Shown in pieces: positions 5,159 to 43,649 of a stretch of DNA of 64,000 bases; the stretch's first letter is position 1; every line of letters starts with the position of its first letter. The notes under the pieces are model-generated. The model ran no database searches. It was not told the origin of the DNA and saw only the letters and a program-made list of their open reading frames with translations. The stretch is from Candidatus Rokuibacteriota bacterium (GTDB lineage Bacteria > Methylomirabilota > Methylomirabilia > Rokubacteriales > CSP1-6), in assembly GCA_023249095.1 (NCBI GenBank), contig JAHFDK010000009.1:1595-65594 (forward strand). The letters run 5' to 3'. Made by a program: the position numbers and the translations under genes.

Positions 5159-5534
5159 GCCGGTCATCACCGCGCGCGCCTTCTTCGAGCGGGCGCGCGC
5201 GGGACAGCTGACGGCCGTGCGGTGCGGCTCGTGCGGCGAGCTCGCGATTCCCCCGAGGGAGCTGTGTCCCGCGTGCCACGCGCGCGCGTGGCAGCCGGTG
5301 CCGCTGGTCGGCGAGGGCACGATCACGAGCTTCACCGTGATCCGCGTTGCGCCGAGGGCGCACGCGGCCGACGCGCCCTACGCCATCGCCGTCGTGAAGC
5401 TGCAGGAGGGCGTGTCGATCCTCGGCCGGATCGTCGACATTCCGCTCGACAAAGTCGCCGTCGGCCTGCCGGTCCGCTTCCGCCCGCTCGGCGCGCAGGA
5501 CCAGACGTCGATCGGCTTCGGGCCGCTCGGCTAG
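5151..5534 (+). CDS. Zn-ribbon/OB-fold DUF35 protein, usual partner of SCP-x type thiolases
   Basis: 127 aa with a CxxC...CxxC rubredoxin-like knuckle (CGSCGELAIPPRELCPACHA) followed by an OB-fold-like region. It overlaps the thiolase stop by 8 nt. Confidence 0.8.
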   Translation: MTEPVITARAFFERARAGQLTAVRCGSCGELAIPPRELCPACHARAWQPVPLVGEGTITSFTVIRVAPRAHAADAPYAIAVVKLQEGVSILGRIVDIPLDKVAVGLPVRFRPLGAQDQTSIGFGPLG

Positions 5535-5632
5535 AGTAGTTTGAGGAGCCGCGCGGCGTTGCCACCGAGGATGCGCTCCTTGGCGCCCTCAGAGAGCGCG
5601 AGCGCCCTGATCGCGTCGATGTTCCCCTTCAT
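5531..5632 (-). pseudogene. Probable C-terminal remnant of an amidohydrolase-family gene
   Basis: The minus strand reads ...GVPTMKGNIDAIRALALSEGAKERILGGNAARLLKLL*. This resembles the conserved C-terminal tail of metal-dependent amidohydrolases. There is no room for the rest of such a gene between the SDR and DUF35 genes. Confidence 0.35.
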
Positions 5633-5660
5633 CGTGGGCACGCCCCTCGACTCCCCGGCA

Positions 5661-6416
5661 TCAGACGGTCGAGTAGCCGCCGCTCACGCTGATCGTCTGA
5701 CCCGTGATCCAGCCGGCGAGGTCGGACGCTAGGAAGGCGACGAACGGCGCCACGTCCTCGGGCCTCCCGAGGCGCCGGATGGGATAGAAGGCGAGGATGC
5801 GCTCGCGGTTCTTCGCGAGCCATTCCTGGTCCGCGTGCGAGGTCTCGATCCAGCCGAGGGCGAGCGCGTTCACGGTGATGTCGAGGCGGCCGAACTCCTT
5901 GGCGAGCGTCCGCGTCAGGGAAAGCACGGCGCCGCGCGCTCCCGCCGACACGCCGAGTCGCGGCTGGCCCACGCGCGCCGAGTCGCCGACGATGCTGATG
6001 ATGCGCCCGCCCTTCTGCGCCGCGAGCGTCGGCGCCGCGGCGTGACAGGCGTTGAAGACGCCGTAGAGGTCGACGTCCACCTGTCGCCGCCACTCCTCGG
6101 GCGTCGTCTCGAGGAACAGCTTGGCCTCGACGTGGCCCGCGTTGTTGACGACGACGTCGAGCCGTCCGAGGTCGGCGACGACGCGCTCGACCATGCGGCT
6201 CACGGCGCCGTAGTCGGCCACGTCCGCCTGGTAGGCCGCCGCGCGACCGCCCCGCCCGGTGATTGCCGCGACGAGCGAGTCGGCGTCCTGCTTCGAGTGG
6301 AGGTAGTTGACGGCGACGGCCGCACCCTCCCGAGCCAGCGTCAGCGAGATCTCGCGACCGACGTCGCGCGCGCCGCCGGTGACCAGCGCGACCTTGCCGC
6401 CGAGCCCGAGGTTCAC
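5661..6416 (-). CDS. SDR family oxidoreductase (FabG-like)
   Basis: 251 aa with a TGGARDVG cofactor motif, NNAG, and a catalytic region typical of classical short-chain dehydrogenases. Confidence 0.85.
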   Translation of the reverse strand: MNLGLGGKVALVTGGARDVGREISLTLAREGAAVAVNYLHSKQDADSLVAAITGRGGRAAAYQADVADYGAVSRMVERVVADLGRLDVVVNNAGHVEAKLFLETTPEEWRRQVDVDLYGVFNACHAAAPTLAAQKGGRIISIVGDSARVGQPRLGVSAGARGAVLSLTRTLAKEFGRLDITVNALALGWIETSHADQEWLAKNRERILAFYPIRRLGRPEDVAPFVAFLASDLAGWITGQTISVSGGYSTV

Positions 6417-6423
6417 GGTTTCA

Positions 6424-8814
6424 TCATCCTCGCGCCCGGGCGCGCTCGATGAGCCGGAAGAGCCGGTCAGGAGTCACCGGCAGCTCGGCGATCTCGATCC
6501 CGAGCGGTACCAGCGCGTCGGCGACCGCATTCGCGATGGCGGCGGGGGCGCCGATCGTCCCGCCCTCGCCCATGCCGCGGAAGCCGCCGAGCGCCACCGG
6601 CGACGGCGTCTCCAGGTGATGCACCTCCATCCACGGGACCTCGCAGGCCGAGGGCACCACGTAGTCCATCAGGGTGCCGCTCAAGAGCTGCCCCTGATCG
6701 TCGTAGACGACCTCCTCGAGGAGCGCCGCTCCGAGCCCCTGGGCCACGCCCCCGTGAACCTGGCCGTCCACGATGAGCGGATTGACCATGCGCCCGCAGT
6801 CCTCCACGACGACGTAGCGCAAGGGCTTCACCTCGCAGGTCTCCCGATCCACCTCGACCACCGCCACGTGGGTCGCGTTGGACGCGGTGCCGTAATAGGG
6901 ATCGTAGAAGCGCGTGGCCTCGAGGCCCGGCTCCAGACCGGTCGGCAGCCGCCGCGCGCCGGTGTACGCGGCCCTGGCGATCTCGCGCACGGCGACGCTC
7001 CGATCGAGCATCCCGCGCACCGCCCACCGGCCGTCGGTCATCACGACGTCCGCCGGGTCGGCCTCGAGGAGATGGCCGGCGATCACGAGCATCTTCTCGC
7101 GCACGGCCCGCCCGGCGAGGATGGCGGCCCCGCCCGCCAGCACGAGGCTCCTGCTCGCGTAGGTGCCGGTGCCGTAGGGCGAGACCTCGGTGTCGCCGTG
7201 GATGACACGCACATCGTCGATCGGCACGCCGACTTCGTCGGCCACGATCTGGGCCAGCGTGGTTTCGAGCCCCTGCCCGTGCGAGGCGATACCGAACACC
7301 GCCGTCACCTTGCCCGCGGGATCGAAGCGGATCGTCGCCGCCTCGGTGCCGGTCGCGATGGGCATACCGGGCGAGACGGGAATCGCCGAGCCGATCCCGG
7401 TCAGCTCGACGTAGGAAGCGACGCCGACGCCCAACCAGCGTCCCTCGGCGCGCGCCCTGGATTGCTCGGCGCGCACGGCCGCGTAGTCCAGAGCCTCGCA
7501 GGCCCGCAGCAGCGACGCGGTGAAGCTCGCCCGATCCCACACGATGCCGGACGGCGACTTGTAGGGAAATTCCTCGTCGCGCACGAAATTGCGGAGACGG
7601 ATCTCCGTCGGATCCATCCCGAGCTGGCGCGCCGCTCGATCCATCAGGCCTTCGATCACGAAGACCGCCGGCGGGCGGCCGACTCCCCGATACGGGCCCA
7701 GCGGCGCCTTGCAGGTGGCGACGCCCCGCGTGCGCCCTCGGTACGTGGGCACCCGGTACGGCCCGGGCAGGAAACTGATCGTCTGCACCGGCTCGATGGC
7801 GGCCGTCCACGGATAGATGGAATACGCGCCGACGTCGGCGGTGACCTGAGCCCGGAGCCCGACGATGGCGCCGTCGCGGTCCACGCCGAGCTCGGCCTCG
7901 ACGATCTCGTCCCACGCGTGCGTGGTCGCGAGCAGATCCTCGCGGCGGTCACCGATCCACTTCACCGGGCGACCCAGGCGACGGGCCATCACGCAGGTGG
8001 CGATCTCCTCCGGGTAGAGCGACGCCTTGGCGCCGAAGCCGCCGCCCACATCGGCGGCGATCACGCGGATGCGGTGCTCGGGCATGTCGAGCAGATCGCT
8101 CAGGACGTCGCGGACGAGACCGGGACACTGCGCCGACGAGCGCAGCGTGAGCGTCCCACTTCCGGTCGCGTACTCGGCCAGACAGCCGCGGTTCTCCATG
8201 CAGACCGGGGTGTGCCGGTGAAAGCGGAATCGCTCGCGCACGACCAGCGCCGCCCCGGCCAGCGCCTCGTCCACGTCGCCCCGGCCGAACTCGCGACTGA
8301 CGAGCAGGTTGGTGCCCGCCTCGTCATGGAGCAGCGGGCTTTCGGGCCGCAGCGCCTGTTCCATGTCCGTGACGACAGGGATCGGCTCGTACTCGACCAG
8401 GATGCGCTCGACCGCGTCCTCGGCCACGTACCGGCTCTCCGCCGCGACCATCACGACGGCTTCACCCACGTGACGCACTTTGCCGAGCGCGAGGGGCGGA
8501 AAGCTCGTGACCTTCACGGCGGGAGTCTTCGAGGCCGCGCGCACGGGCTTCGCTGAGCGCGCGACGTCTTCGCCCGTCAACACCGCCGCGACTCCCGGGA
8601 GCGTGAGCGCCGCGGAGGCGGCGATGCTCACGACGCGCGCGTGGGCATGGGGCGATCGGAGGAAGGCGGCGTACAGGAGCCGCGCCGGACGGTGGTCGTC
8701 GACGTAGCTCCCCTGCCCGGTCAGGAAACGGCCGTCCTCCCGTCTCGCCACGCGAGCGCCGACGAGCCGCGGGAGCGCCGTCGGGGCCGTCGCGCCGGCT
8801 CGGTGCTCGGTCAC
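6424..8814 (-). CDS. Xanthine dehydrogenase family molybdopterin-binding large subunit (CoxL/aldehyde oxidase-like)
   Basis: 796 aa with an N-terminal RREDGRFLTGQGSYVDD motif and a GPYRGVGR segment. Length is as expected for Mo-hydroxylase large subunits. Confidence 0.9.
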   Translation of the reverse strand: MTEHRAGATAPTALPRLVGARVARREDGRFLTGQGSYVDDHRPARLLYAAFLRSPHAHARVVSIAASAALTLPGVAAVLTGEDVARSAKPVRAASKTPAVKVTSFPPLALGKVRHVGEAVVMVAAESRYVAEDAVERILVEYEPIPVVTDMEQALRPESPLLHDEAGTNLLVSREFGRGDVDEALAGAALVVRERFRFHRHTPVCMENRGCLAEYATGSGTLTLRSSAQCPGLVRDVLSDLLDMPEHRIRVIAADVGGGFGAKASLYPEEIATCVMARRLGRPVKWIGDRREDLLATTHAWDEIVEAELGVDRDGAIVGLRAQVTADVGAYSIYPWTAAIEPVQTISFLPGPYRVPTYRGRTRGVATCKAPLGPYRGVGRPPAVFVIEGLMDRAARQLGMDPTEIRLRNFVRDEEFPYKSPSGIVWDRASFTASLLRACEALDYAAVRAEQSRARAEGRWLGVGVASYVELTGIGSAIPVSPGMPIATGTEAATIRFDPAGKVTAVFGIASHGQGLETTLAQIVADEVGVPIDDVRVIHGDTEVSPYGTGTYASRSLVLAGGAAILAGRAVREKMLVIAGHLLEADPADVVMTDGRWAVRGMLDRSVAVREIARAAYTGARRLPTGLEPGLEATRFYDPYYGTASNATHVAVVEVDRETCEVKPLRYVVVEDCGRMVNPLIVDGQVHGGVAQGLGAALLEEVVYDDQGQLLSGTLMDYVVPSACEVPWMEVHHLETPSPVALGGFRGMGEGGTIGAPAAIANAVADALVPLGIEIAELPVTPDRLFRLIERARARG

Positions 8815-26200: not shown

Positions 26201-26467
26201 CCGTGAGACTCCCCGAAATGTGGTGCACCACCCGATCCGAGGCGTCAAATGTAGCTCGGCGAGGGGGACGGGGAAAGGGAAAGCGCCCGGAAGGGTTGCC
26301 CGCCCCCGCGTGCCGCATCGATGTTGCCAACAGGCGGTAGAACGAGATAAAATTTTGATCGCGAAGTGGGAAACCCCTTTGGTGAGCGTCCACTAGTCGT
26401 AGCCGGTAGCCCTGAGGCCTGGAGTCCAGCGTTTCCGGAATCAGGACGGAGGCGGTGGAGGGCCACG

Positions 26468-28150
26468 GTGGGCACGTTCGCAGCACGCCAGCAGCTTCTG
26501 CGTCGCTCGCTTCTGATGGTCGGCCTCTTGCTCGCCGCGACCGCCTGTTCTTCCGTCCGTTCCGACCAGGCATCCGCACCGGGCGTGCCGGGAGAGCCAT
26601 CGACGCCTCCGAGCTCCAAGCCGTCCACCCCGCCATCGCCGAAGCCGGGCGCGAAGGACGCGGAGGTGTTCGACTCGCGCGACTTCGTTGTCGTGGTCGC
26701 GAAGCCGGGCGACACCGCCGAGGGCTTGGCCGCGCGCTACCTCGGGGATCCGAACAAGAAGTGGATGATCGAGGATTACATGGGCGTCCGAACCTTCTCC
26801 CAGGGCCAGGAGGTCGTGATCCCCAAGCGCGAGTGGAATCCGGGCGGAGTGTTCCCGTGGGGCTACCAGCTCGTGCCCGTGCTCGTCTATCACAGGATCA
26901 GCGCCGAGAATGAGGGCAAGCTGTCGATCGGGGTGCGCCACTTCGAGGCCCAGATGCGCTCCCTGCACGCCGAGGGGTTCCGAGCCGTGAGCCTCGCAGA
27001 CTTTCTGGAGTTCACGGCGGGGCGCCGGCAATTGCCGCGGAAGTCCGTCGTGCTCACGTTCGATGACGGCTACCGGTCGTTCATCCAGTACGCGCGCCCG
27101 CTGTTGAAGGACTTCGGGTTCAACGCGACGCTCTTCGTGTACTCGGACTTCATCGGCGCCGGTGGCCTGTCGTGGGCCGATCTGCGCGCGCTGATGACCC
27201 AGGGGTTCGACGTGCAAGCGCACTCGAAGACGCACAGTAACCTCCGGCGCAAAGAGGACGAGTCGCAGGCAACGTACGCGAAGCGCATCGAGGCCGAGCT
27301 CGCCTATCCCCTCGACCTGTTTCGAAAGCACCTGGGGCGCGCCGCCGACACGCTCGCCTACCCATACGGGGACACGGACGAGGAGGTCCTGCAGCACGTG
27401 GTGAAGTACGGCTACGTCGCCGCTTTCACGGTGCGCCGGCAGTCGAACCCGGCGTTCGTGTTCCCTCTCAAGATCAGCCGCAGCCAGATCTACTCGGAGA
27501 TGACGCCCAAGGACTTTGCGCGGAACCTCACCGTCTTCCAGGACCAGGAGGTCGGGACGGCCAGAACGTCCGACGGGAAGCTCGCGGGGTCCTCCGGCGT
27601 GGCGCGTGTCCAGCCCGTAGCCACGGCCGCCGCCGCGCCGCCGGTACCGTGGGCGCGGGATCGCCTGGCGGCGTCTCACAACGAGCGCGCGGAGCAGCTG
27701 GAACAGCGCGGCCATCTGCGGCAGGCGCTCGAGGAACGAGCGATCGCCCTCACGATCAACCCCGGAGATCGGCGGGCCCAGGAAGCCCAGAAGCGCCTGG
27801 AGGGACGGACCGCGCAGGAGGTCGCCGGATTGCTGAAGGAGGGCCGCGCACTCCTGGCTCGGGGACTGCTCGGCGAGGCCCAACAGCGGTTTCTTGTCGC
27901 GCTCAGCCTCGACCCCACGAACCGGACGGCGTTCGAGACCCTTCAGAATGAGGTGCGCGAGGTCATGTCCATTGTGCACACCGTCCGGTCGGGCGACACC
28001 TGCCCCTCCGTTGCCGAGCTGTACTACGGCGATCGGCTTCGCTGCGAGGTCATCGTCGAAACGAATCGTCTGGCGCTGAACGTACCGCTCCGACCGGGAC
28101 AAAAACTCAAGATTCCGGAAATCCCGGGCGTTCCGTTCCAGCTGCGCTAA
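26468..28150 (+). CDS. Lipoprotein with LysM - polysaccharide deacetylase (NodB) - TPR-like - LysM architecture
   Basis: Lipobox LLLAATAC. NodB motifs VLTFDDGY and HSKTHSNL. LysM-like segments lie near both ends (VVVAKPGDTAEGLAARY... and HTVRSGDTCPSVAELYY...KLKIPE). The start is provisionally GTG 26468. Confidence 0.75.
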   Translation: MGTFAARQQLLRRSLLMVGLLLAATACSSVRSDQASAPGVPGEPSTPPSSKPSTPPSPKPGAKDAEVFDSRDFVVVVAKPGDTAEGLAARYLGDPNKKWMIEDYMGVRTFSQGQEVVIPKREWNPGGVFPWGYQLVPVLVYHRISAENEGKLSIGVRHFEAQMRSLHAEGFRAVSLADFLEFTAGRRQLPRKSVVLTFDDGYRSFIQYARPLLKDFGFNATLFVYSDFIGAGGLSWADLRALMTQGFDVQAHSKTHSNLRRKEDESQATYAKRIEAELAYPLDLFRKHLGRAADTLAYPYGDTDEEVLQHVVKYGYVAAFTVRRQSNPAFVFPLKISRSQIYSEMTPKDFARNLTVFQDQEVGTARTSDGKLAGSSGVARVQPVATAAAAPPVPWARDRLAASHNERAEQLEQRGHLRQALEERAIALTINPGDRRAQEAQKRLEGRTAQEVAGLLKEGRALLARGLLGEAQQRFLVALSLDPTNRTAFETLQNEVREVMSIVHTVRSGDTCPSVAELYYGDRLRCEVIVETNRLALNVPLRPGQKLKIPEIPGVPFQLR

Positions 28151-37900: not shown

Positions 37901-38439
37901 TCCAGAAGTATCTGGCGCCGCACGTCGATACGGGTCAGAAGCCCTGGCGCTTCAAAGATCCGGCCATGGGGCAGTCGGTGGCCCTCGCAGAGTTCCAGCG
38001 GGCGCAAGTCATCCGCGACGTCTTCTTCCGCGGTGGTGGAAGCGCTCCGAGCATCCAGCTGGAGTTCAAGCCGCTGGAGATGGACGCGTCGATCCAGCAG
38101 TTCATCCTGGACGTGGACGGAAAGCTCGTGAAATATTCCCACGGCCCCCAGGTCGCAGTCCCCGTGCAGTTCCCCGGGCCCGGAGGCCGGAGCATGGTGC
38201 GCGCGTCCATCTCGCCGGCACCGGCTTCGGGCTCGAGCGGCATCAAGTTCGAGGGGCCGTGGGCGCTCTTCAGAATGTTCGACGGCGTGCAAATCGCGGA
38301 CACCAAGCAATCGGAGCGGTTCGTCGCGACGATCAATGTCGAGGGCCGCCGCACGACCTTCGAGATCTTCGCCTCGAGCGTGCGCAATCCCTTCCGCCTG
38401 CCCGAGCTCAGCCAGTTCCGCTGCCCCACGGCCCTGTGA
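34906..38439 (+). CDS. tssM: T6SS membrane-complex subunit TssM (IcmF)
   Basis: ATG 34906 has an ATGA overlap with tssL. It has N-terminal TM helices and Walker A GAPGAGKTT. The 1177-aa length and C-terminal domain are typical of IcmF/VasK. Confidence 0.9.
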   Translation: MKLVGTIFRLIFSYWVLLAIGVLALALLVWWGGPTISISNFRPFESETVRWIQIAIIALTPVGRAGWRFFKARRANAALTNGLLAPPAQARPDATAGEAAQLRQRFEEALGLLRKLRFGTERPSLWARIRGLGSQQHLYNLPWYAFIGAPGAGKTTALINSGLRFPLADRLGREAVRGVGGTRNCDWWFTDEAVFLDTAGRYTTQQSDRDVDAAAWKSFLQLLKKSRPRRPINGVLVTVSVGDLLQQSPAERETHAQALRSRVQELYQELGVRIPVYVLVTKGDLLAGFSEFFATLGKEERAQAWGFSLPYGKKGLDPAAMSAELQRLEGRLYDRLPERLEEERDPVRRALLYGFPQQFALLRDRLVQFVDAAFAPTRFEAPLLFRGVYFTSGTQEGSPIDRVMGALARGLGLERKLLPPQHPSGRSYFLTRLLREVVFPEAGLAGFDLRWERRRQWLQTGVIAACAVSLMLATLAWWLSAAHNRRYLAEVTAKFGEVQKQVTAVRAGARSDLIALLPTLTGVRGLAEIRATTDGSVPWSWRFGLYQGGKLEAASGAAYRRMLQDTFLPSLATYLEQYLRVEAPGSLDESYDALKTYLMLYDPKHLDPEAVWRWYQTRGDRLLGSDAGPKALKVHFDALYDRGWVDPTVPRNDELIARVRTVIGRDSLANRVYGRLKREPIQDLKDFTIADKAGPKGMLVFERESRQPLTKGVPGLYTKDGYYRHFTGRVETSTLQLAEEETWVLGAARSTLASTPGSTEAVRRLYLEDYRRIWRQFISDITIIRDRDLAKTIEITRVLSAPDTPLKALMKAIERETSLSAADKEGLGGLAGRAQDMASRARQTVTGVPFGALEKSLVDDQFEDIRKFVSGPGGNAPPPIDGLVQLLNDVFQWLVAAKTALDTGQSLPPTDTANKLLAEASRQPEPLRSMLESLAKGGTRTTVGKTRERIDAELRAQVTDFCVKATGGRYPFVRSSTQDVTPEDFARLFAQSGLLESFFQKYLAPHVDTGQKPWRFKDPAMGQSVALAEFQRAQVIRDVFFRGGGSAPSIQLEFKPLEMDASIQQFILDVDGKLVKYSHGPQVAVPVQFPGPGGRSMVRASISPAPASGSSGIKFEGPWALFRMFDGVQIADTKQSERFVATINVEGRRTTFEIFASSVRNPFRLPELSQFRCPTAL

Positions 38440-39128
38440 CCGCGGCGGTGAGCGGTCCGATTCCGGGATGGTACGGGAAGCTCCCGAGCCTGGGCGACTT
38501 CGCGACTCGCCGGCTGTCGCCCGAGTTCGTCAAGCCGTGGGACACCTGGTTGCAGGAAGTCCTCCGGGCAACGCGCGACACCCTCCTGGAAGGCTGGTTC
38601 GATTCGTATCTCACCATGCCGATCTGGCGCTTCGTATTTCTCCCCGGGCTCGTGGGCCAGAGCGGCTGGGCTGGTGTGCTGATGCCGAGCGTCGACCGAG
38701 TGGGCCGCCATTTCCCGCTGACGATCGCTATGGCGTTGCCCTCGTATGCCGCAGCGGCGCACGCCGTGTTCGACGGCGCCGACTGGTTCGCGGGGCTGGA
38801 AGACGCGGCGCTCGCCGTACTCGATCCGACTCGCGGCGCCGACGATCTCGACAGCGCGCTCGCGCACAGCGTCCTCGCGGTCGCGGCCGCCACCGATCCT
38901 GACGGTTCGGTCGGTCCGTTGCGCGCCCTGTCCTCCGTCGAAGCCTTCGGGCCGTTCGCCGAGGGAGAAGCGCTGCGCGCCTGGAGCGAGAGCACGGGAT
39001 GGAAGGGGCTCTGGTGGACGCGCGGCCGAGTGGACGGCGAGTCGCTGATGCTCGGCTGCGCCGGCCTGCCGACGACCGAAGAGTTCGCCCGGCTCCTCGA
39101 GAGCCGTTCGACTCGCGCGCCCGCGTGA
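38436..39128 (+). CDS. tagF: T6SS-associated protein TagF (ImpM)
   Basis: GTG 38436 has a GTGA overlap with tssM. PGWYGKLPSLGDFATRRL...PIWRF...D.VGR.FPL is the conserved TagF signature. Confidence 0.85.
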   Translation: MTAAVSGPIPGWYGKLPSLGDFATRRLSPEFVKPWDTWLQEVLRATRDTLLEGWFDSYLTMPIWRFVFLPGLVGQSGWAGVLMPSVDRVGRHFPLTIAMALPSYAAAAHAVFDGADWFAGLEDAALAVLDPTRGADDLDSALAHSVLAVAAATDPDGSVGPLRALSSVEAFGPFAEGEALRAWSESTGWKGLWWTRGRVDGESLMLGCAGLPTTEEFARLLESRSTRAPA

Positions 39129-39135
39129 CGAGAAT

Positions 39136-39720
39136 CTATTTCGGCTTGGGTCTGTAAGGCCAGATCGTACCGGTGACCTTGATGGTCACCGTCGTTTTGA
39201 CGTTGGCCGATTCGATCCCTTTCGTGGCCGGGTGCGCTCGCCGTTCAGACGTCTTGGTCACGACCGACGGAACATCGCGCGTGTAGAGGCGCATGTTCTG
39301 AACGATGTCTCCTCTGGGCTTCACGTGCTGTTCCAGGGTCCTGACCGCGCCATTGGCGTCCACCTTCCCATTCACGATAGCGGTGTGGTGGCCGCGTTTG
39401 GCCGTTGATTCCTTCTTCTCCGTCACCGTGGATCCGTCCTTGAAGGTGTACTCGATCACGGTGGTCGTCGTCACGAGGTGATTTCGGATCTGGAGAATGT
39501 CACCGGGCTCGACGTGGCTGACGTCGTCGACAGGATCACCCCAGATGTAATCCGAGTCGTCCTTGACAGGGCCGAGGTCATTGGATGTCTGCGCGCCGGC
39601 TTGCTTGAGCGCTTGCTCACCAAGGTCCCAGCACTCTCCCCGTCCGACTTTCGCCCCCAGTTTTCCCCGTGCCCATACCACGACCTGCTGATTCGTCGTG
39701 AGTGGCTGTGCCTTGCTCAT
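39136..39720 (-). CDS. Papain-like (CHAP/NlpC-P60-type, BPSL0067-like) putative cysteine hydrolase; candidate T6SS cargo effector
   Basis: 194 aa with no signal peptide. Candidate nucleophile in VGRGECWDLGEQAL (Cys30), then PGDILQI and RGHHTAIV (His111/112). G+C is visibly lower than in the flanking core genes (about 60% against 70% in hand counts of sample lines). Confidence 0.5.
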   Translation of the reverse strand: MSKAQPLTTNQQVVVWARGKLGAKVGRGECWDLGEQALKQAGAQTSNDLGPVKDDSDYIWGDPVDDVSHVEPGDILQIRNHLVTTTTVIEYTFKDGSTVTEKKESTAKRGHHTAIVNGKVDANGAVRTLEQHVKPRGDIVQNMRLYTRDVPSVVTKTSERRAHPATKGIESANVKTTVTIKVTGTIWPYRPKPK

Positions 39721-39736: not shown

Positions 39737-41215
39737 CTAGGCCCGCCCGCCGCGCAGCTGCTTGACTTGCGCCTCGTAGGCGCGACGGAAGGCCTTGCCG
39801 AAGGCGGCGTTGAAGTCCTCGCGGGCCTCTCCGGAGATCGCCGCGTAGCGCTCGAGGAAGAGATCCCACAGCTTCGCCTTGCGATTCATCGGCAGCAGGT
39901 CGTCGAGCATGGACTGGTCGGACAGGCGCTTCGCCAGCTCCTGAGGTGCGAAGCGCGCAAACACTTCCTCCAGCGCCGCGCGCATGCCGGCGAGGAGGCC
40001 GAGCTGGTGCGCGCGCAGGTCGTCGTAGGCGTCCTTCATGGCGCGGAGGGGTGGCATGAAGCCGTGCATCTGCGGCGTCAGCAGGTGCGTCAGCGCCGCC
40101 TCCACCGTCGGCGAGAACTTCAGGGGGTTGTTGTCCTGCGCCATGATCATGGTGACGTCGGCGCGCATCTCGCTCTTCGTGAGCCCGCGGGCGCGCAGGA
40201 GGTCGAGCGTGCCCTGCACGGCCTCGCGCAGGAGCTTGCCGATCGCCTCCATCGTGTCCGGTGTGAGACTCTTCGCGGACTGGATTCCGGCAATGCCCGC
40301 GCCCTGCAGGAAAGCGCGGAGCAGCATCTGCTCCTGTGAGCCCGGAGGCGCCATGCTCACCGGCTGAGTCGGAGGCCTGACCGGCGCGGGCGGAGCGCTC
40401 GGTTGCGGCGCCGGCGGCGCCGCCTGGGCCATGGGCTTGAGCACGGGCTCCGGCTTCGCCTGCGGTGGGACGTACGGCGTGAAGAGCTCGTGCCCCTGGT
40501 CGGGGACGGACGGCGGCGGCGGGATCGGCTTCACCGTGCTCGCGAACATGTCGAGTGGATCCACGACACCGCCTGAAGCCGGGGACGACCCCAGGGTCGG
40601 CTTCCCGAAAGGCGACTGGGGCGCCAGCAGATCGGGCGCGCTCGACGGCTTGAGGCCGAACAACTCGTCGATGCTCGGCTCGCGTCCACGTATTCCCACG
40701 AGCGGGTCATCCGCCGGGAATTCTGGAATGTGCGGAGTGGCGCCCGGGGAACGCGTGGGAACTACAGGCGGCACGTGCGGCGGGATCATGGGATCCGCGC
40801 GCGGCGCCGACCGCTCGGCCGGAAGCAGGAGATCGGCGAACGGGTCGAATGGGCTCGGCCCCGCGCCGACGCTGGAAGACGCCGCCTGTGGCGCGGTAGG
40901 CGCAGTCACGGCCACCTCGAGGATGTAGTCCCCGACCTTGACCTTGTCCCCGTCCCCGAGCCGTGCCTGGCTGCCCGAGCCCAGCGGCCGTCCGTTCACG
41001 ACGACCGGGTTCTTCGTACCGGTGTCGGTGATGACGTAGCCGCCGGCCTGGAAGGAGATGGTGGCGTGCGTGCGCGAGATGAACCGCTCGGGATCCGAGA
41101 GCACCAAGGTGTTGGTCTCTCCTCGCCCGATCGTCCCCCCGGCTTCCTCGAAGCGGGCCGCCAACTCTCGGTCGAGAGGGCGCCCCTTGAAGGAAACCGC
41201 GCGGATCGTCAGCAT
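39737..41215 (-). CDS. tagH: T6SS-associated FHA-domain protein TagH (Fha)
   Basis: ATG 41215 gives MLTIRAVSFKGRPL...GRGETNTLVLSDPERFISRTHATI (FHA). A Pro-rich linker follows, then the conserved TagH C-terminal domain (NNPLKF...LWDLF..Y). Confidence 0.85.
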   Translation of the reverse strand: MLTIRAVSFKGRPLDRELAARFEEAGGTIGRGETNTLVLSDPERFISRTHATISFQAGGYVITDTGTKNPVVVNGRPLGSGSQARLGDGDKVKVGDYILEVAVTAPTAPQAASSSVGAGPSPFDPFADLLLPAERSAPRADPMIPPHVPPVVPTRSPGATPHIPEFPADDPLVGIRGREPSIDELFGLKPSSAPDLLAPQSPFGKPTLGSSPASGGVVDPLDMFASTVKPIPPPPSVPDQGHELFTPYVPPQAKPEPVLKPMAQAAPPAPQPSAPPAPVRPPTQPVSMAPPGSQEQMLLRAFLQGAGIAGIQSAKSLTPDTMEAIGKLLREAVQGTLDLLRARGLTKSEMRADVTMIMAQDNNPLKFSPTVEAALTHLLTPQMHGFMPPLRAMKDAYDDLRAHQLGLLAGMRAALEEVFARFAPQELAKRLSDQSMLDDLLPMNRKAKLWDLFLERYAAISGEAREDFNAAFGKAFRRAYEAQVKQLRGGRA

Positions 41216-41352
41216 AACCCACCTTTCCGGAATCATCCGAGAGCGGCGTAGGGCCGATTTTACTCCGGTTGGGTCGTTCGCGTCCCCCCTCAATCTGCTG
41301 TACTTCCGCGACTTCGGAAGGCTAGACTACCCGCGCGTTCAGGAGGCACCGG

Positions 41353-42120
41353 ATGAGCGGGCCAGACAAACGAGCCAAACCGTTGACGCTTCAGGAGCTC
41401 ACGGAGCTCCGCCGCAAGACGGAAGTCGTCTCCAAGTTTTTGCAAGAGCAGCTCGCGGCGCACCTGGACACCCTGCGGCCCGTCCTCTCGCCCGAGAGGC
41501 TGTTCAGCAAGTATCTCGGGGCGAAAGGAGATCCCGCGGTTGCCGAGCGCTCCTTTGCGCGGCTCCAGCAGAACTACAAGCCCTTCGCCGCGCGTCCCTT
41601 CGACGCGCCGTCCGAGTTCGACCCGCACTGGCTGACACTGGTGGGCAACCGCCTCACGCTCTATCCGTGGGAATACACCCACGACGCCAAGACCGACCGC
41701 GAGACCAAGACGATCAGCATGGCATCGCCCCTTCGCTGGGTCGTGAGCTTCGCGTCCGCGTACGCTCTGTCTCAGGTGAGGCAAGGCCTGGCCGGGAAGG
41801 GCGAGCGCCGGCCCGAGCACATCCGCCAGTTCGTCGTCAATGCTCTGGTCGCGCAACTGACGATCAACCACGCTTCAGGCCTGACGGCATTGTTTGCCGA
41901 CCTCCGTTACCAGCTCCAGACCGACTATGCGCCCGACCTGCCCAAGCTGCCGCTCACTACCATCGGATTCGGCCTGCCTTCCTTCCGCCCGGCTGACGAC
42001 CTCATCCTGGCCGCCACCAGCTTCTCCGGCATCCCCGCCTTCGTCGAGCTGATCGACGTCGAGGGACTTTCCCGTCTGCAGGATCCGCTGAAAGCGCGTC
42101 TCCAGGAGTTGGTGCGCTAG
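41353..42120 (+). CDS. Hypothetical protein, no family recognised, inside the T6SS locus
   Basis: 255-aa ORF with ATG 41353 six nt after aggagg. Codon usage and amino-acid composition look protein-like and match the host G+C. It is divergent from tagH. Confidence 0.6.
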   Translation: MSGPDKRAKPLTLQELTELRRKTEVVSKFLQEQLAAHLDTLRPVLSPERLFSKYLGAKGDPAVAERSFARLQQNYKPFAARPFDAPSEFDPHWLTLVGNRLTLYPWEYTHDAKTDRETKTISMASPLRWVVSFASAYALSQVRQGLAGKGERRPEHIRQFVVNALVAQLTINHASGLTALFADLRYQLQTDYAPDLPKLPLTTIGFGLPSFRPADDLILAATSFSGIPAFVELIDVEGLSRLQDPLKARLQELVR

Positions 42121-42147: not shown

Positions 42148-42632
42148 GTGGCCGTTCGTGGCTGGCCAAGGGCCCTGGTCTGGAACACCTTCGGCACGAT
42201 CGCGTCGGCGCCTCACGGCGTGTCAGCGGATGCTCAGACAGAAGCCTCCATCGAGCCCCCAGCCCGGATTCAAGTGATCTTCGACGGCGGCCAGCTTCGC
42301 CTAGCTTCCTTCGATGTGAACGTCCGAATCGTCCCGCACGGCACCTGGGTGGTCCGGGGCAAGTCGACCACGTCACTCCTCGCCCACGAGCAAGGACTCT
42401 GGAACAATCGCCGGACTCACGGCTCACGAATACCATCGGGCGCTCGAGGCCTTGCGCGCCGCGAACCAGTCCGGATCATTCACGGCTTGCCCGGGAAGCG
42501 CTCCAGCGGATTCAGACGAAGGTCGATGGCCTCCAGGACAAGTACGATCGGGAAACCATCCACAGCCGCAATGCCACGGCGCAAGCCTAGTGGGCCGCGA
42601 CGATCCGCAACTGCATCGTGAACGGGAACTAG
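42148..42632 (+). pseudogene. Decayed DUF922-like (predicted Zn-dependent protease) gene
   Basis: The reading ...TSLLAHEQG breaks frame. It continues as DSGTIAGLTAHEYHRALEALRAANQ in a second frame and AREALQRIQTKVDGLQDKYDRETIHSRNATAQA in a third. An in-frame TAG (42588-42590) then precedes WAATIRNCIVNGN*. The second His of HExxH appears mutated (HEQGL). Confidence 0.5.
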
Positions 42633-42673
42633 GCCCTGCCAAATCCGTGACACGGCGCGAACGCGAGGCCGAA

Positions 42674-43264
42674 GTGTCCGAGGGACCGGTGCTCCTGCAA
42701 GCCGTCCGCGCCACGGTCACCACGATAGAAACGCGGGCTCGCATTTACCGCTGGGCGGTTGTCTGCGTTGCGATGGCTCTCGTCGGCCCCATCCTCTTGG
42801 CGCTCGCCTTTCTTTCCTGGCGCCCACTCCCCTATGTCGCTCTGCTCGTTCCCGTTGTGGGCGCATTTCTCGTCATCGACAGTCGGACGGTGCTCAGCTG
42901 GCAGCGCCGCGTGCTGCATATGTGGCTCTCGGGTGATCTCGGGCTGTCTGATCTTCGCCAGACGGTCCAGGCCATGCGTCATGTGCCGGCGGGGACGGTC
43001 GCCGGCATGCTGGATCGACTACCACCTTCTGAGCCACCGCAACAATTCGATCGACTTCCCACAGACAGCAAAGCTTCCGTCGCGGAGCGCTGCGTGGCGC
43101 GCACTTCCCGTCAAGACCGTCGCACCTTGCTCTCGACTGCCGGCGCGACGCTCCTCGTGTGCTCGGTCGCCGTCACCGTGTCGCTGCAGGCAGCCACACC
43201 GCTGCTCGTGGCTCCCGTCGGGCTGCTCCTCATCGCATCATCGCGACGCGCCAGCGTTCGGTGA
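42674..43264 (+). CDS. Small multi-pass membrane protein, function unknown
   Basis: About 196 aa from GTG 42674 (alternative 42689), with four hydrophobic helices (e.g. WAVVCVAMALVGPILLALAFL, YVALLVPVVGAFLVI, LLVCSVAVTVSL, LLVAPVGLLLIA). The 5' part of the track ORF overlaps the DUF922 remnant. Confidence 0.45.
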   Translation: MSEGPVLLQAVRATVTTIETRARIYRWAVVCVAMALVGPILLALAFLSWRPLPYVALLVPVVGAFLVIDSRTVLSWQRRVLHMWLSGDLGLSDLRQTVQAMRHVPAGTVAGMLDRLPPSEPPQQFDRLPTDSKASVAERCVARTSRQDRRTLLSTAGATLLVCSVAVTVSLQAATPLLVAPVGLLLIASSRRASVR

Positions 43265-43271
43265 TCGACAC

Positions 43272-43649
43272 GTGAACGCGCCCGTCCGGAATCGGTTCTT
43301 CATGGTCTTCGGCGCCGTTGTGCTCGTCGGGGTCATTCTGTACTACGCGTTCATGGCTTTCGACGGGATGGGGCTCGCTGACCACCAGGTCACGGCCACG
43401 GTGCTGGACAAGAAGCATCGCGGGGCCGCCAACACCTATAGCACGCAGATCGTCGGCAATCGCACGCTCGTCGTGCCGCAGGCGACGCCGGAGATGTACG
43501 TACTGAGTCTCGACGTCAACGGCATCCCGTCGGAGATCCTGGTCGACAAGATGCTCTACGACGCTGTGGGGCCGAAGGACCGCGTACGCGTCACCTACCA
43601 GCGCCGTCGCTTCACCGGGGCGGTGCAGGTCGTGACCGTCACCCGCTGA
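43272..43649 (+). CDS. Small N-terminally anchored protein, function unknown
   Basis: About 125 aa with one TM helix (FFMVFGAVVLVGVILYYAFMAF) followed by a beta-rich soluble domain. The start is GTG 43272 or ATG 43302. It begins 8 nt after the previous gene and ends 14 nt before the next. Confidence 0.45.
   Translation: MNAPVRNRFFMVFGAVVLVGVILYYAFMAFDGMGLADHQVTATVLDKKHRGAANTYSTQIVGNRTLVVPQATPEMYVLSLDVNGIPSEILVDKMLYDAVGPKDRVRVTYQRRRFTGAVQVVTVTR

Follow-up and report, generated by a model that had tools for sequence, protein, structure and literature searches.

A CHAP-like cysteine hydrolase of the PF25459 family in a Rokubacterial type VI secretion cluster, a candidate effector lacking an adjacent immunity gene

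The type VI secretion system (T6SS) cluster of a Candidatus Rokuibacteriota bacterium encodes, between tagF and tagH, a small CHAP-like cysteine hydrolase from now on referred to as X. We propose that X is a T6SS-delivered cargo effector that is harmless to the producing cell and to its kin, and put the probability of this reading at roughly 0.58. An effector role was among the options raised by an earlier reading of the DNA made without database searches (the sequence-only reading), and a link to T6SS effectors is now supported by fusions of the X domain to the C-terminus of Rhs proteins, by restriction of the family to T6SS-positive genomes and by the location of family members in T6SS loci of several phyla.

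Gene X, its family and its predicted fold

The window, meaning the whole stretch of 64,000 nucleotides that was analyzed, holds a complete T6SS cluster. pppA, ppkA, tssJ, tssK, tssL, tssM and tagF are found on the plus strand while tssC, hcp, tagJ, tssE, tssF, tssG, clpV, vgrG, two DUF2169 genes and a gene for an Rhs toxin are encoded on the minus strand, with hcp at 62231-62713. The open reading frame of X could be confirmed at its originally proposed position, with the addition that it lies on the minus strand, which had been left unstated (Table 1). The short intergenic distances reported for it are exact: tagH is located on the same strand 16 nt 5' of X, with its stop codon beginning at 39737, and tagF is arranged tail-to-tail with X, its stop ending at 39128 and leaving 7 nt. 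Since tagH is found directly upstream on the same strand, the two genes probably form one transcript. The true start of tagH may lie downstream of 41293, and that of tagF is probably found near 38436, where the gene would overlap the end of tssM, given tagF homologues of 229-231 aa. The N-terminus of X (MSKAQPLTTNQQVVVWARGKLG...) is, by inspection, free of any hydrophobic signal-like stretch, in agreement with the proposed lack of a signal peptide, and all sequence motifs originally quoted are found in the protein, namely VGRGECWDLGEQAL (containing Cys30), PGDILQI, GHHTAIV (His111/His112) and LEQH (Glu130). The lower G+C content of the gene was likewise borne out, with 0.59-0.60 across the X open reading frame compared with 0.65-0.72 in the flanks. 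All seven Rokubacterial copies of X show a G+C content of 0.59-0.64 despite a dS of about 0.9, and because the value is stable in all seven, it provides no evidence of recent acquisition; the low G+C content is intrinsic to the gene and no sign of recent transfer.

Table 1 Features of the X locus, in window coordinates
Feature	Position	Strand	Remarks
Gene X (CHAP-like cysteine hydrolase, PF25459, without signal peptide)	39136..39720	-	ATG-started open reading frame, 194 aa
Cys30 codon, predicted nucleophile, motif G-x-G-E-C-W-D-L	39631..39633	-	plus strand gca, read as TGC
His112 codon, predicted general base, motif R-G/P-H-H-T-A-I-V	39385..39387	-	plus strand gtg, read as CAC
Glu130-Gln131-His132 codons, predicted third catalytic residue and neighbors	39325..39333	-	Glu130 codon 39331-39333; E-Q-N in most members
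C-terminal strand, VTGTIWPYRPK, about residues 170-192	39145..39213	-	predicted strand 169-190; conserved residues
tagH, T6SS FHA protein, directly upstream of X	39737..41293	-	TIGR03354 E=1e-84; PF00498 and PF20232
tagF, convergent with X	38259..39128	+	PF09867 E=9e-44
Gene for 255-aa protein, divergent from tagH	41353..42120	+	homologues adjoin X in other loci

X belongs to a large, uncharacterized bacterial branch of Pfam family PF25459 (AIM3/BBC1 cysteine proteinase fold, AIM3_BBC1_C). It matches the family model over residues 11-136 with 37.4 bits (E=2.8e-9; gathering score 27 bits), and the model is also matched by all 30 of 30 aligned homologues, with a best E-value of 1.8e-13. A word-based search yielded 234 homologues of about 194 aa with 60-94% identity to X, and PF25459 is present in all but one of the 120 homologues listed among these 234. 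A profile search returned 1261 cluster representatives with E<=1e-3, 524 of them even with E<=1e-10, so that X can no longer be regarded as the orphan it was originally taken for. Most family representatives are 160-220 aa long and originate mostly from soil metagenomes. No publication on the X family was found in the literature on PF25459, the Bbc1/Aim3 fold, CHAP-type T6SS effectors and Rokubacterial T6SSs. The fungal members of PF25459 include yeast Bbc1 and Aim3, and X and the 30 aligned bacterial homologues pass or reach the same model. The Bbc1 and Aim3 domains represent C-terminal parts of long fungal proteins and have no known enzymatic role, whereas the bacterial members, of about 160-210 aa, stand alone, strictly conserve their catalytic residues and are associated with T6SSs.

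Residue conservation was counted in an alignment of 63 X-family members from many phyla. Cys30 is found in 62 of the 63 sequences, while His112 and Thr113 are present in every one. Glu130 is conserved in 60/63 and Gln131 in 63/63, followed by either Asn (51 members) or His (12 members) at position 132. The order Cys...His...acidic known from CHAP and NlpC/P60-type enzymes is thus found in the family. Three further positions close to the C-terminus are well conserved, specifically Gly184 (59/63), Tyr189 (58/63) and Arg190 (53/63). The basic C-terminal tail described by the sequence-only reading does exist in X, although it is better understood as part of a family-wide motif, G-T-[IF]-W-x-Y-R-P.

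The AF2 model of X (pLDDT 87.9, pTM 0.78) consists of two N-terminal α-helices, with Cys30 at the start of the second, followed by a sheet of unusually long β-strands (residues 75-92, 98-109, 112-116, 125-132, 139-146, 150-162 and 169-190). What had appeared to be an unusual β-rich insertion between the Cys and His segments corresponds to a long β-hairpin formed by strands 75-92 and 98-109, which is conserved in the family and lies within the PF25459 match. When viral predicted structures were searched with the model using Foldseek, a CHAP-domain protein and a phage tail protein were retrieved at a probability of 0.99, together with an unnamed 669-aa protein at a probability of 1.0, all with a TM-score of about 0.4. 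A Foldseek search of the full model against the PDB gave nothing at E<=1e-3, with the CHAP lysin PlyPy ranking 37th (TM-score 0.28) in a list dominated by secretins because of the long β-hairpins. Sequence searches of the PDB with X or with a 30-sequence profile returned chance-level matches, for example to cytosine deaminase and GroES (E>0.1).

In the Pfam scan, X itself did not match the CHAP model (PF05257) at E<=1, and 6 of 30 close homologues gave weak matches with a best E-value of 0.023. A distant homologue (L058) does pass the CHAP model with 30.5 bits against a gathering score of 26 bits. Because L058 passes while X does not, the relationship between X and CHAP holds at the superfamily level. 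In CHAP amidases and endopeptidases, such as those of phage endolysins and tail lysins or the CHAP domain of glutathionylspermidine synthetase/amidase, the nucleophilic Cys starts an N-terminal helix and the His is located on a β-strand, as is the case in the X model, and the acidic residue of X about 18 residues past the His also conforms to CHAP. The E-x-N pattern of the X family presumably parallels the Cys-His-Glu-Asn set found in the CHAP domain of LysK. Unlike CHAP domains, X contains an extra C-terminal hairpin ending in G-T-x-W-x-Y-R-P, scores below the CHAP threshold and lacks a significant match among solved structures. Its Cys-to-His spacing of 82 residues also differs from that of CHAP because of the long conserved β-hairpin. 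The original assignment to a papain-like, CHAP-type Cys...His fold is supported by the PF25459 score above the gathering threshold, the near-invariant Cys30, His112 and Glu130, the one homologue that passes CHAP and the Foldseek matches to phage CHAP proteins. The best explanation for these sequence features is that X is an active CHAP-like cysteine hydrolase of the papain superfamily with Cys30, His112 and Glu130 as its predicted catalytic residues.

Genomic contexts of the family, Rhs fusions and immunity

The X family occurs in at least Methylomirabilota, Acidobacteriota, Pseudomonadota, Bacteroidota, Planctomycetota and Myxococcota, and many of its members are found within T6SS loci, in at least five phyla. 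A context scan of 60 loci, using one genome per species, allowed three groups to be distinguished. The short-form clade, inside which the Rokubacterial X clade is nested, comprises proteins 44-67% identical to X from Methylobacterium, Burkholderiales, Caulobacteraceae, Myxococcota, Gemmataceae and Vicinamibacteria; its genes are mostly found away from T6SS genes, with neighbors that are unrelated between genomes. Members of the long-form clade are 33-41% identical to X, have about 50 additional N-terminal residues that contain the motif 'IDDGT.ART.SP.PGPIGLD' and are almost always encoded inside T6SS loci. Among the long-form arrangements are X-tagH-tssJKLM (Gammaproteobacteria), X-ppkA (Beta-proteobacteria and Acidobacteriota) and modules in which X is accompanied by vgrG, DUF2169 and a gene encoding a HEAT-repeat protein of about 420-460 aa. 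A Sphingomonas copy that is 46% identical to X and groups with the short forms in the tree is embedded in the order clpV-X-tssK-tssL-tssM. The members of a third subfamily carry Sec signal peptides and are located outside T6SS loci. Overall, the family tree requires at least five changes of T6SS context.

The X family is restricted to T6SS-positive genomes. TssC is encoded elsewhere in 14 of the 15 genomes whose X copy lies outside T6SS loci, which at a T6SS base rate of 25% would occur by chance with a probability of about 4e-8. In the 61-genome family around Methylobacterium crusticola, 15 genomes encode TssC and three encode X, all three of them being TssC-positive. The base rates used for comparison were 15/61 and 11/61 (18-25%).

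In two metagenomic proteins (P0150 and P0391), a complete X domain directly follows an Rhs core. The fused domains share 51% identity with X, including the C-terminal motif, and the Rhs core, which ends in the DPxG motif, can be aligned with the Rhs protein of the window over residues 985-1041 of the latter (E=4e-11). Because it is positioned right after the Rhs core and DPxG, the X domain is a polymorphic-toxin domain and serves as an Rhs C-terminal toxin in these homologues. Both thus share the architecture of known Rhs C-terminal toxins, while X of the window is free-standing. The gene that follows the one fusion with known context is convergent, in place of a co-directional immunity gene. 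It should also be noted that P0150 and P0391 are metagenomic fragments that were each seen once, which we count against the effector reading.

The earlier observation that an immunity gene is absent next to X is correct and extends to the family as a whole. With 7 and 16 nt to tagF and tagH, respectively, an immunity gene would not fit next to X, and there is likewise no space at several other X loci. No conserved neighbor emerged from 16 X loci unlinked to T6SS genes, and no conserved immunity gene was found in any context examined. Small membrane open reading frames at 42148-43649 were considered as conserved immunity genes and rejected, as they occur in no other X-positive locus.

The gene encoding the 255-aa protein is the only recurrent neighbor of X, adjoining it in 16 loci outside Rokubacteria and always on the opposite strand. 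The protein has no Pfam or NCBIfam match and no signal peptide, and its structural model (pLDDT 85) has no PDB match, the faint and non-significant top hits being Bet3, H-NOX and phenol-sensor domains. The gene is retained without X in one genome of the same genus (G008) and is missing in 28 of 29 other X-positive genomes. A role as immunity protein or obligate partner of X was rejected based on its strand, the lack of a signal peptide, its retention without X and its absence from most other X-positive genomes. Because it is found on the opposite strand, is independent of X in G008 and is missing in 28/29 genomes, the gene is a subtype-specific T6SS-associated gene and no X antidote.

Selection and distribution in the Rokubacterial genus

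X is under purifying selection. Its dN/dS is 0.16-0.25 when compared with the five more distant copies of the genus and 0.44 against a copy of 91% identity, and no indels are found across the six genus copies compared and one metagenome copy, every copy being 585 nt long. Within the genus, X evolves at about the rate of its neighbors tagF, tagH and tssM. In all close homologues (at least 70% identity), tagH-X is divergent from the gene for the 255-aa protein and convergent with tagF-tssM-tssL-tssK-tssJ-ppkA.

Of the 17 genomes of the genus, 7 carry X, which is missing from all 44 other relatives, while a T6SS is encoded by 11 of these 61 genomes as judged by TssK. Two members of the genus (G008 and G009) encode the same tssM-tagF and tagH with stop codons 20 and 11 nt apart, respectively, and an empty junction between them. 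Two T6SS-positive relatives (G022 and G032) also lack X. A core component or conserved accessory of the T6SS would be expected wherever its cognate cluster is found, and X does not follow this pattern in G008, G009, G022 and G032. The empty tagF/tagH junction of G008 and G009 indicates that X is dispensable for the apparatus, which disfavors the structural component that had been listed among the original options. In the TssM tree, G008 and G009 form one clade inside a polytomy of X-positive lineages. The presence and absence of X in the genus fit a single event, either gain or loss, with the base of the tree being a polytomy.

Candidate function and alternative explanations

For the secretion of X, its loading route and its substrate, we infer the following. 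X would be transcribed together with tagH in the Rokubacterial genus, synthesized in the cytoplasm as a protein lacking a signal peptide and then exported by the T6SS, plausibly traveling inside Hcp, since it is a protein of 21 kDa without an N-terminal loading extension. It would be harmless in the cytoplasm of the producer and to kin, given that a cognate immunity gene is missing in every context examined. The bond cleaved may be of the amide, peptide or isopeptide type and belong to a structure either absent from or protected in the producers, the candidates being a cell wall of foreign chemotype and a target in eukaryotes (fungi or amoebae). A eukaryotic target is hinted at by the domain's only named relatives, the C-terminal domains of fungal Bbc1 and Aim3. 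TecA of Burkholderia cenocepacia is a papain-like deamidase and an immunity-less T6SS effector aimed at eukaryotes. X may resemble TecA-type anti-eukaryote effectors in being a small, T6SS-linked Cys-His enzyme that would need no immunity gene.

Further observations count against an effector role of X. Here and in several other lineages, X sits among tagH, ppkA, clpV and tssK instead of beside vgrG, hcp or PAAR genes, and accessory components are more typically found in such a neighborhood of regulatory and core genes. X also lacks the N-terminal extension of about 50 aa found in the DUF2169/HEAT-adjacent subfamily. Conservation is high for an effector, short-form proteins from different phyla being about 60% identical, and the PDB Foldseek search gave no significant match, the best CHAP entry reaching a TM-score of 0.28. 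In addition, an antibacterial T6SS toxin without an immunity gene is unusual.

Extending the proposal from X to the family, bacterial PF25459 proteins could be widespread immunity-free T6SS effectors whose CHAP-like hydrolase domain hits a target absent from producers, a generalization that we consider tentative and rather doubtful. If true, soil bacteria would commonly use PF25459 proteins as a weapon against eukaryotes or foreign cell walls, available in three delivery formats: free-standing, Rhs-fused, and N-terminally extended beside DUF2169 and HEAT genes. If X itself is secreted, it would define either a new class of T6SS enzyme target (foreign walls, eukaryotic prey or predators) or a non-toxic secreted function, and if it is not, it would be a novel accessory enzyme of the TagH/PpkA control module. 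In both cases, a testable function is provided for the bacterial proteins within a Pfam family named after yeast proteins, and the X family offers an initial entry point into the biology of T6SSs in Rokubacteria and Acidobacteria.

The alternative of a non-secreted accessory is unlikely in our assessment. X would then be a cytoplasmic regulatory enzyme working with PpkA, PppA, TagH, TagF and the 255-aa protein, for example by processing or de-modifying a machine component or a signaling molecule that gates firing. Such a role would be consistent with the repeated placement of X beside tagH, ppkA, clpV or tssK in independent arrangements across phyla, with its adjacency to the 255-aa protein outside Rokubacteria and with the failure to find an immunity gene anywhere, as well as with strong purifying selection and an evolutionary rate close to that of tagF, tagH and tssM. 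However, it does not account for the use of the whole X domain as an Rhs C-terminal toxin, the Sec signal peptides of some subfamily members or the many copies unlinked to any T6SS locus. X is also missing from the otherwise identical clusters of G008 and G009 and from the T6SS-positive G022 and G032, and its supposed partner, the 255-aa protein, is absent in nearly all other X-positive genomes.

It is quite unlikely that X represents a classical antibacterial enzyme of the Tae type that acts on peptidoglycan as an amidase or endopeptidase and whose immunity gene is remote. Type VI effectors classically include papain-like hydrolases, and the known families of this kind come as toxin-immunity pairs. 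Tae1-Tae4 are reportedly type VI amidase effectors that come with Tai immunity proteins. Like them, X is a small, signal-less, papain-like Cys-His enzyme encoded in a T6SS cluster, and its CHAP-like fold and catalytic residues would fit such an activity. The Sec signal peptides of some homologues imply an extracytoplasmic site of action, X follows the gene of a PG_binding_1-domain protein in one lineage, and in the L089/L073 loci it is part of an island with a Cys-His protein and a lipoprotein that resembles an effector-immunity pair. Membership in the Tae families as originally considered is nevertheless unsupported, as neither X nor the 30 homologues matched the NlpC/P60 and Tae4 models in a Pfam scan at E<=10, and an adjacent signal-peptide-bearing periplasmic immunity gene is missing at every locus examined. 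Immunity would thus have to be remote in dozens of independent contexts, unlike in known Tae-Tai pairs, and the X domain, again unlike Tae1-Tae4, can also be found at the C-terminus of Rhs proteins or behind a Sec signal peptide.

Finally, it is very improbable that X is a housekeeping cytoplasmic amidase unrelated to the T6SS, with, for example, a thiol-polyamine or gamma-glutamyl conjugate as its substrate, similar to the CHAP domain of glutathionylspermidine amidase, and found in the cluster by chance; while many homologues are located among metabolic genes and X is highly conserved and lacks both a signal peptide and an immunity gene, such an enzyme would be difficult to reconcile with T6SS-positive genomes in 14/15 and 3/3 cases against base rates of 18-25%, with the Rhs fusions or with repeated independent embedding in T6SS loci.

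Homologues of X are also carried by cultured strains, specifically Methylobacterium crusticola MIMD6, Bosea robiniae DSM 26672, Thiolinea disciformis DSM 14473 and Spirosoma terrae KCTC 52035.

The 255-aa gene divergent from tagH

The 255-aa protein has 493 homologues, and scans against Pfam and NCBIfam gave no match. In Rokubacteria, its gene and tagH are divergently oriented. Homologues with 27-34% identity adjoin X, the CHAP-like cysteine hydrolase gene, in 16 loci from Acidobacteriota and Beta-proteobacteria, always on the strand opposite to X and often next to ppkA. G008, a genome of the same genus as the window, does not have X, yet the 255-aa gene is kept. The AF2 model of the protein has a pLDDT of 85; comparison with the PDB yielded nothing significant, the faint best matches being Bet3, H-NOX and phenol-sensor domains. 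We regard this gene as a candidate T6SS accessory gene, one not described before.

A second copy, partial and split, is located about 700 nt past the intact copy on the opposite strand of a G008 contig (C194); it could be what is left of a duplication, or an artefact of assembly. Further, the 255-aa gene and tagH of a Rokubacterial metagenome locus are adjoined by a gene encoding a 491-aa fusion of an FHA domain to DUF2169.

Coordinates of features around X and the 255-aa gene
Feature	Location	Strand
255-aa protein gene	window 41353-42120	+
Second 255-aa copy	L031 (G008) 6337-6842	
FHA-DUF2169 protein	L007 4127-5602	
VipA plus N-terminal VipB protein, 539 aa	L065 (Vicinamibacteraceae) 5362-6981	
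DUF2169, HEAT-repeat protein, long-form X	L058 6376-8492; L094 1662-4943; L065 2176-4532	
Cys...His protein and predicted lipoprotein	L089 6860-7803; L073 6807-7786	
Polysaccharide deacetylase with C-terminal LysM domain	window 26366-28150	+

Gene neighborhoods of X homologues

TssC-like segments were found by BLAST directly upstream of X in several Acidobacterial loci besides the Vicinamibacteraceae one. In the Vicinamibacteraceae locus, a single polypeptide joins VipA (TssB) with the N-terminal VipB (TssC) domain, its gene lying immediately upstream of the X homologue. In a metagenomic protein (P0154), called as one chain, an X domain is joined to the ClpB_D2-small domain from the C-terminus of a ClpV-like ATPase; it probably represents adjacent clpV and X genes read through by the gene caller. 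This adjacency agrees with the order clpV-X-tssK in a Sphingomonas locus (L049).

Long-form X recurs in the company of DUF2169 and a HEAT-repeat protein (420-460 aa) in L058, L094 and L065. The N-terminal extension of this long-form X bears the motif 'PGPIGL', and we know of no T6SS loading motif that resembles it.

Possible wall-directed genes near X and at the cluster edge

Directly upstream of two Acidobacterial X homologues is encoded a protein of 153-163 aa whose sequence shows the Cys...His pattern 'NHCAHFV...HIGI'; a predicted lipoprotein of 161-163 aa comes after it. Neither protein matched Pfam; together they resemble a classical pair of amidase effector and immunity protein. Just upstream of pppA and ppkA, the deacetylase-LysM gene sits on the margin of the T6SS cluster, where a wall-modifying enzyme could be relevant to self-protection from wall-directed effectors.
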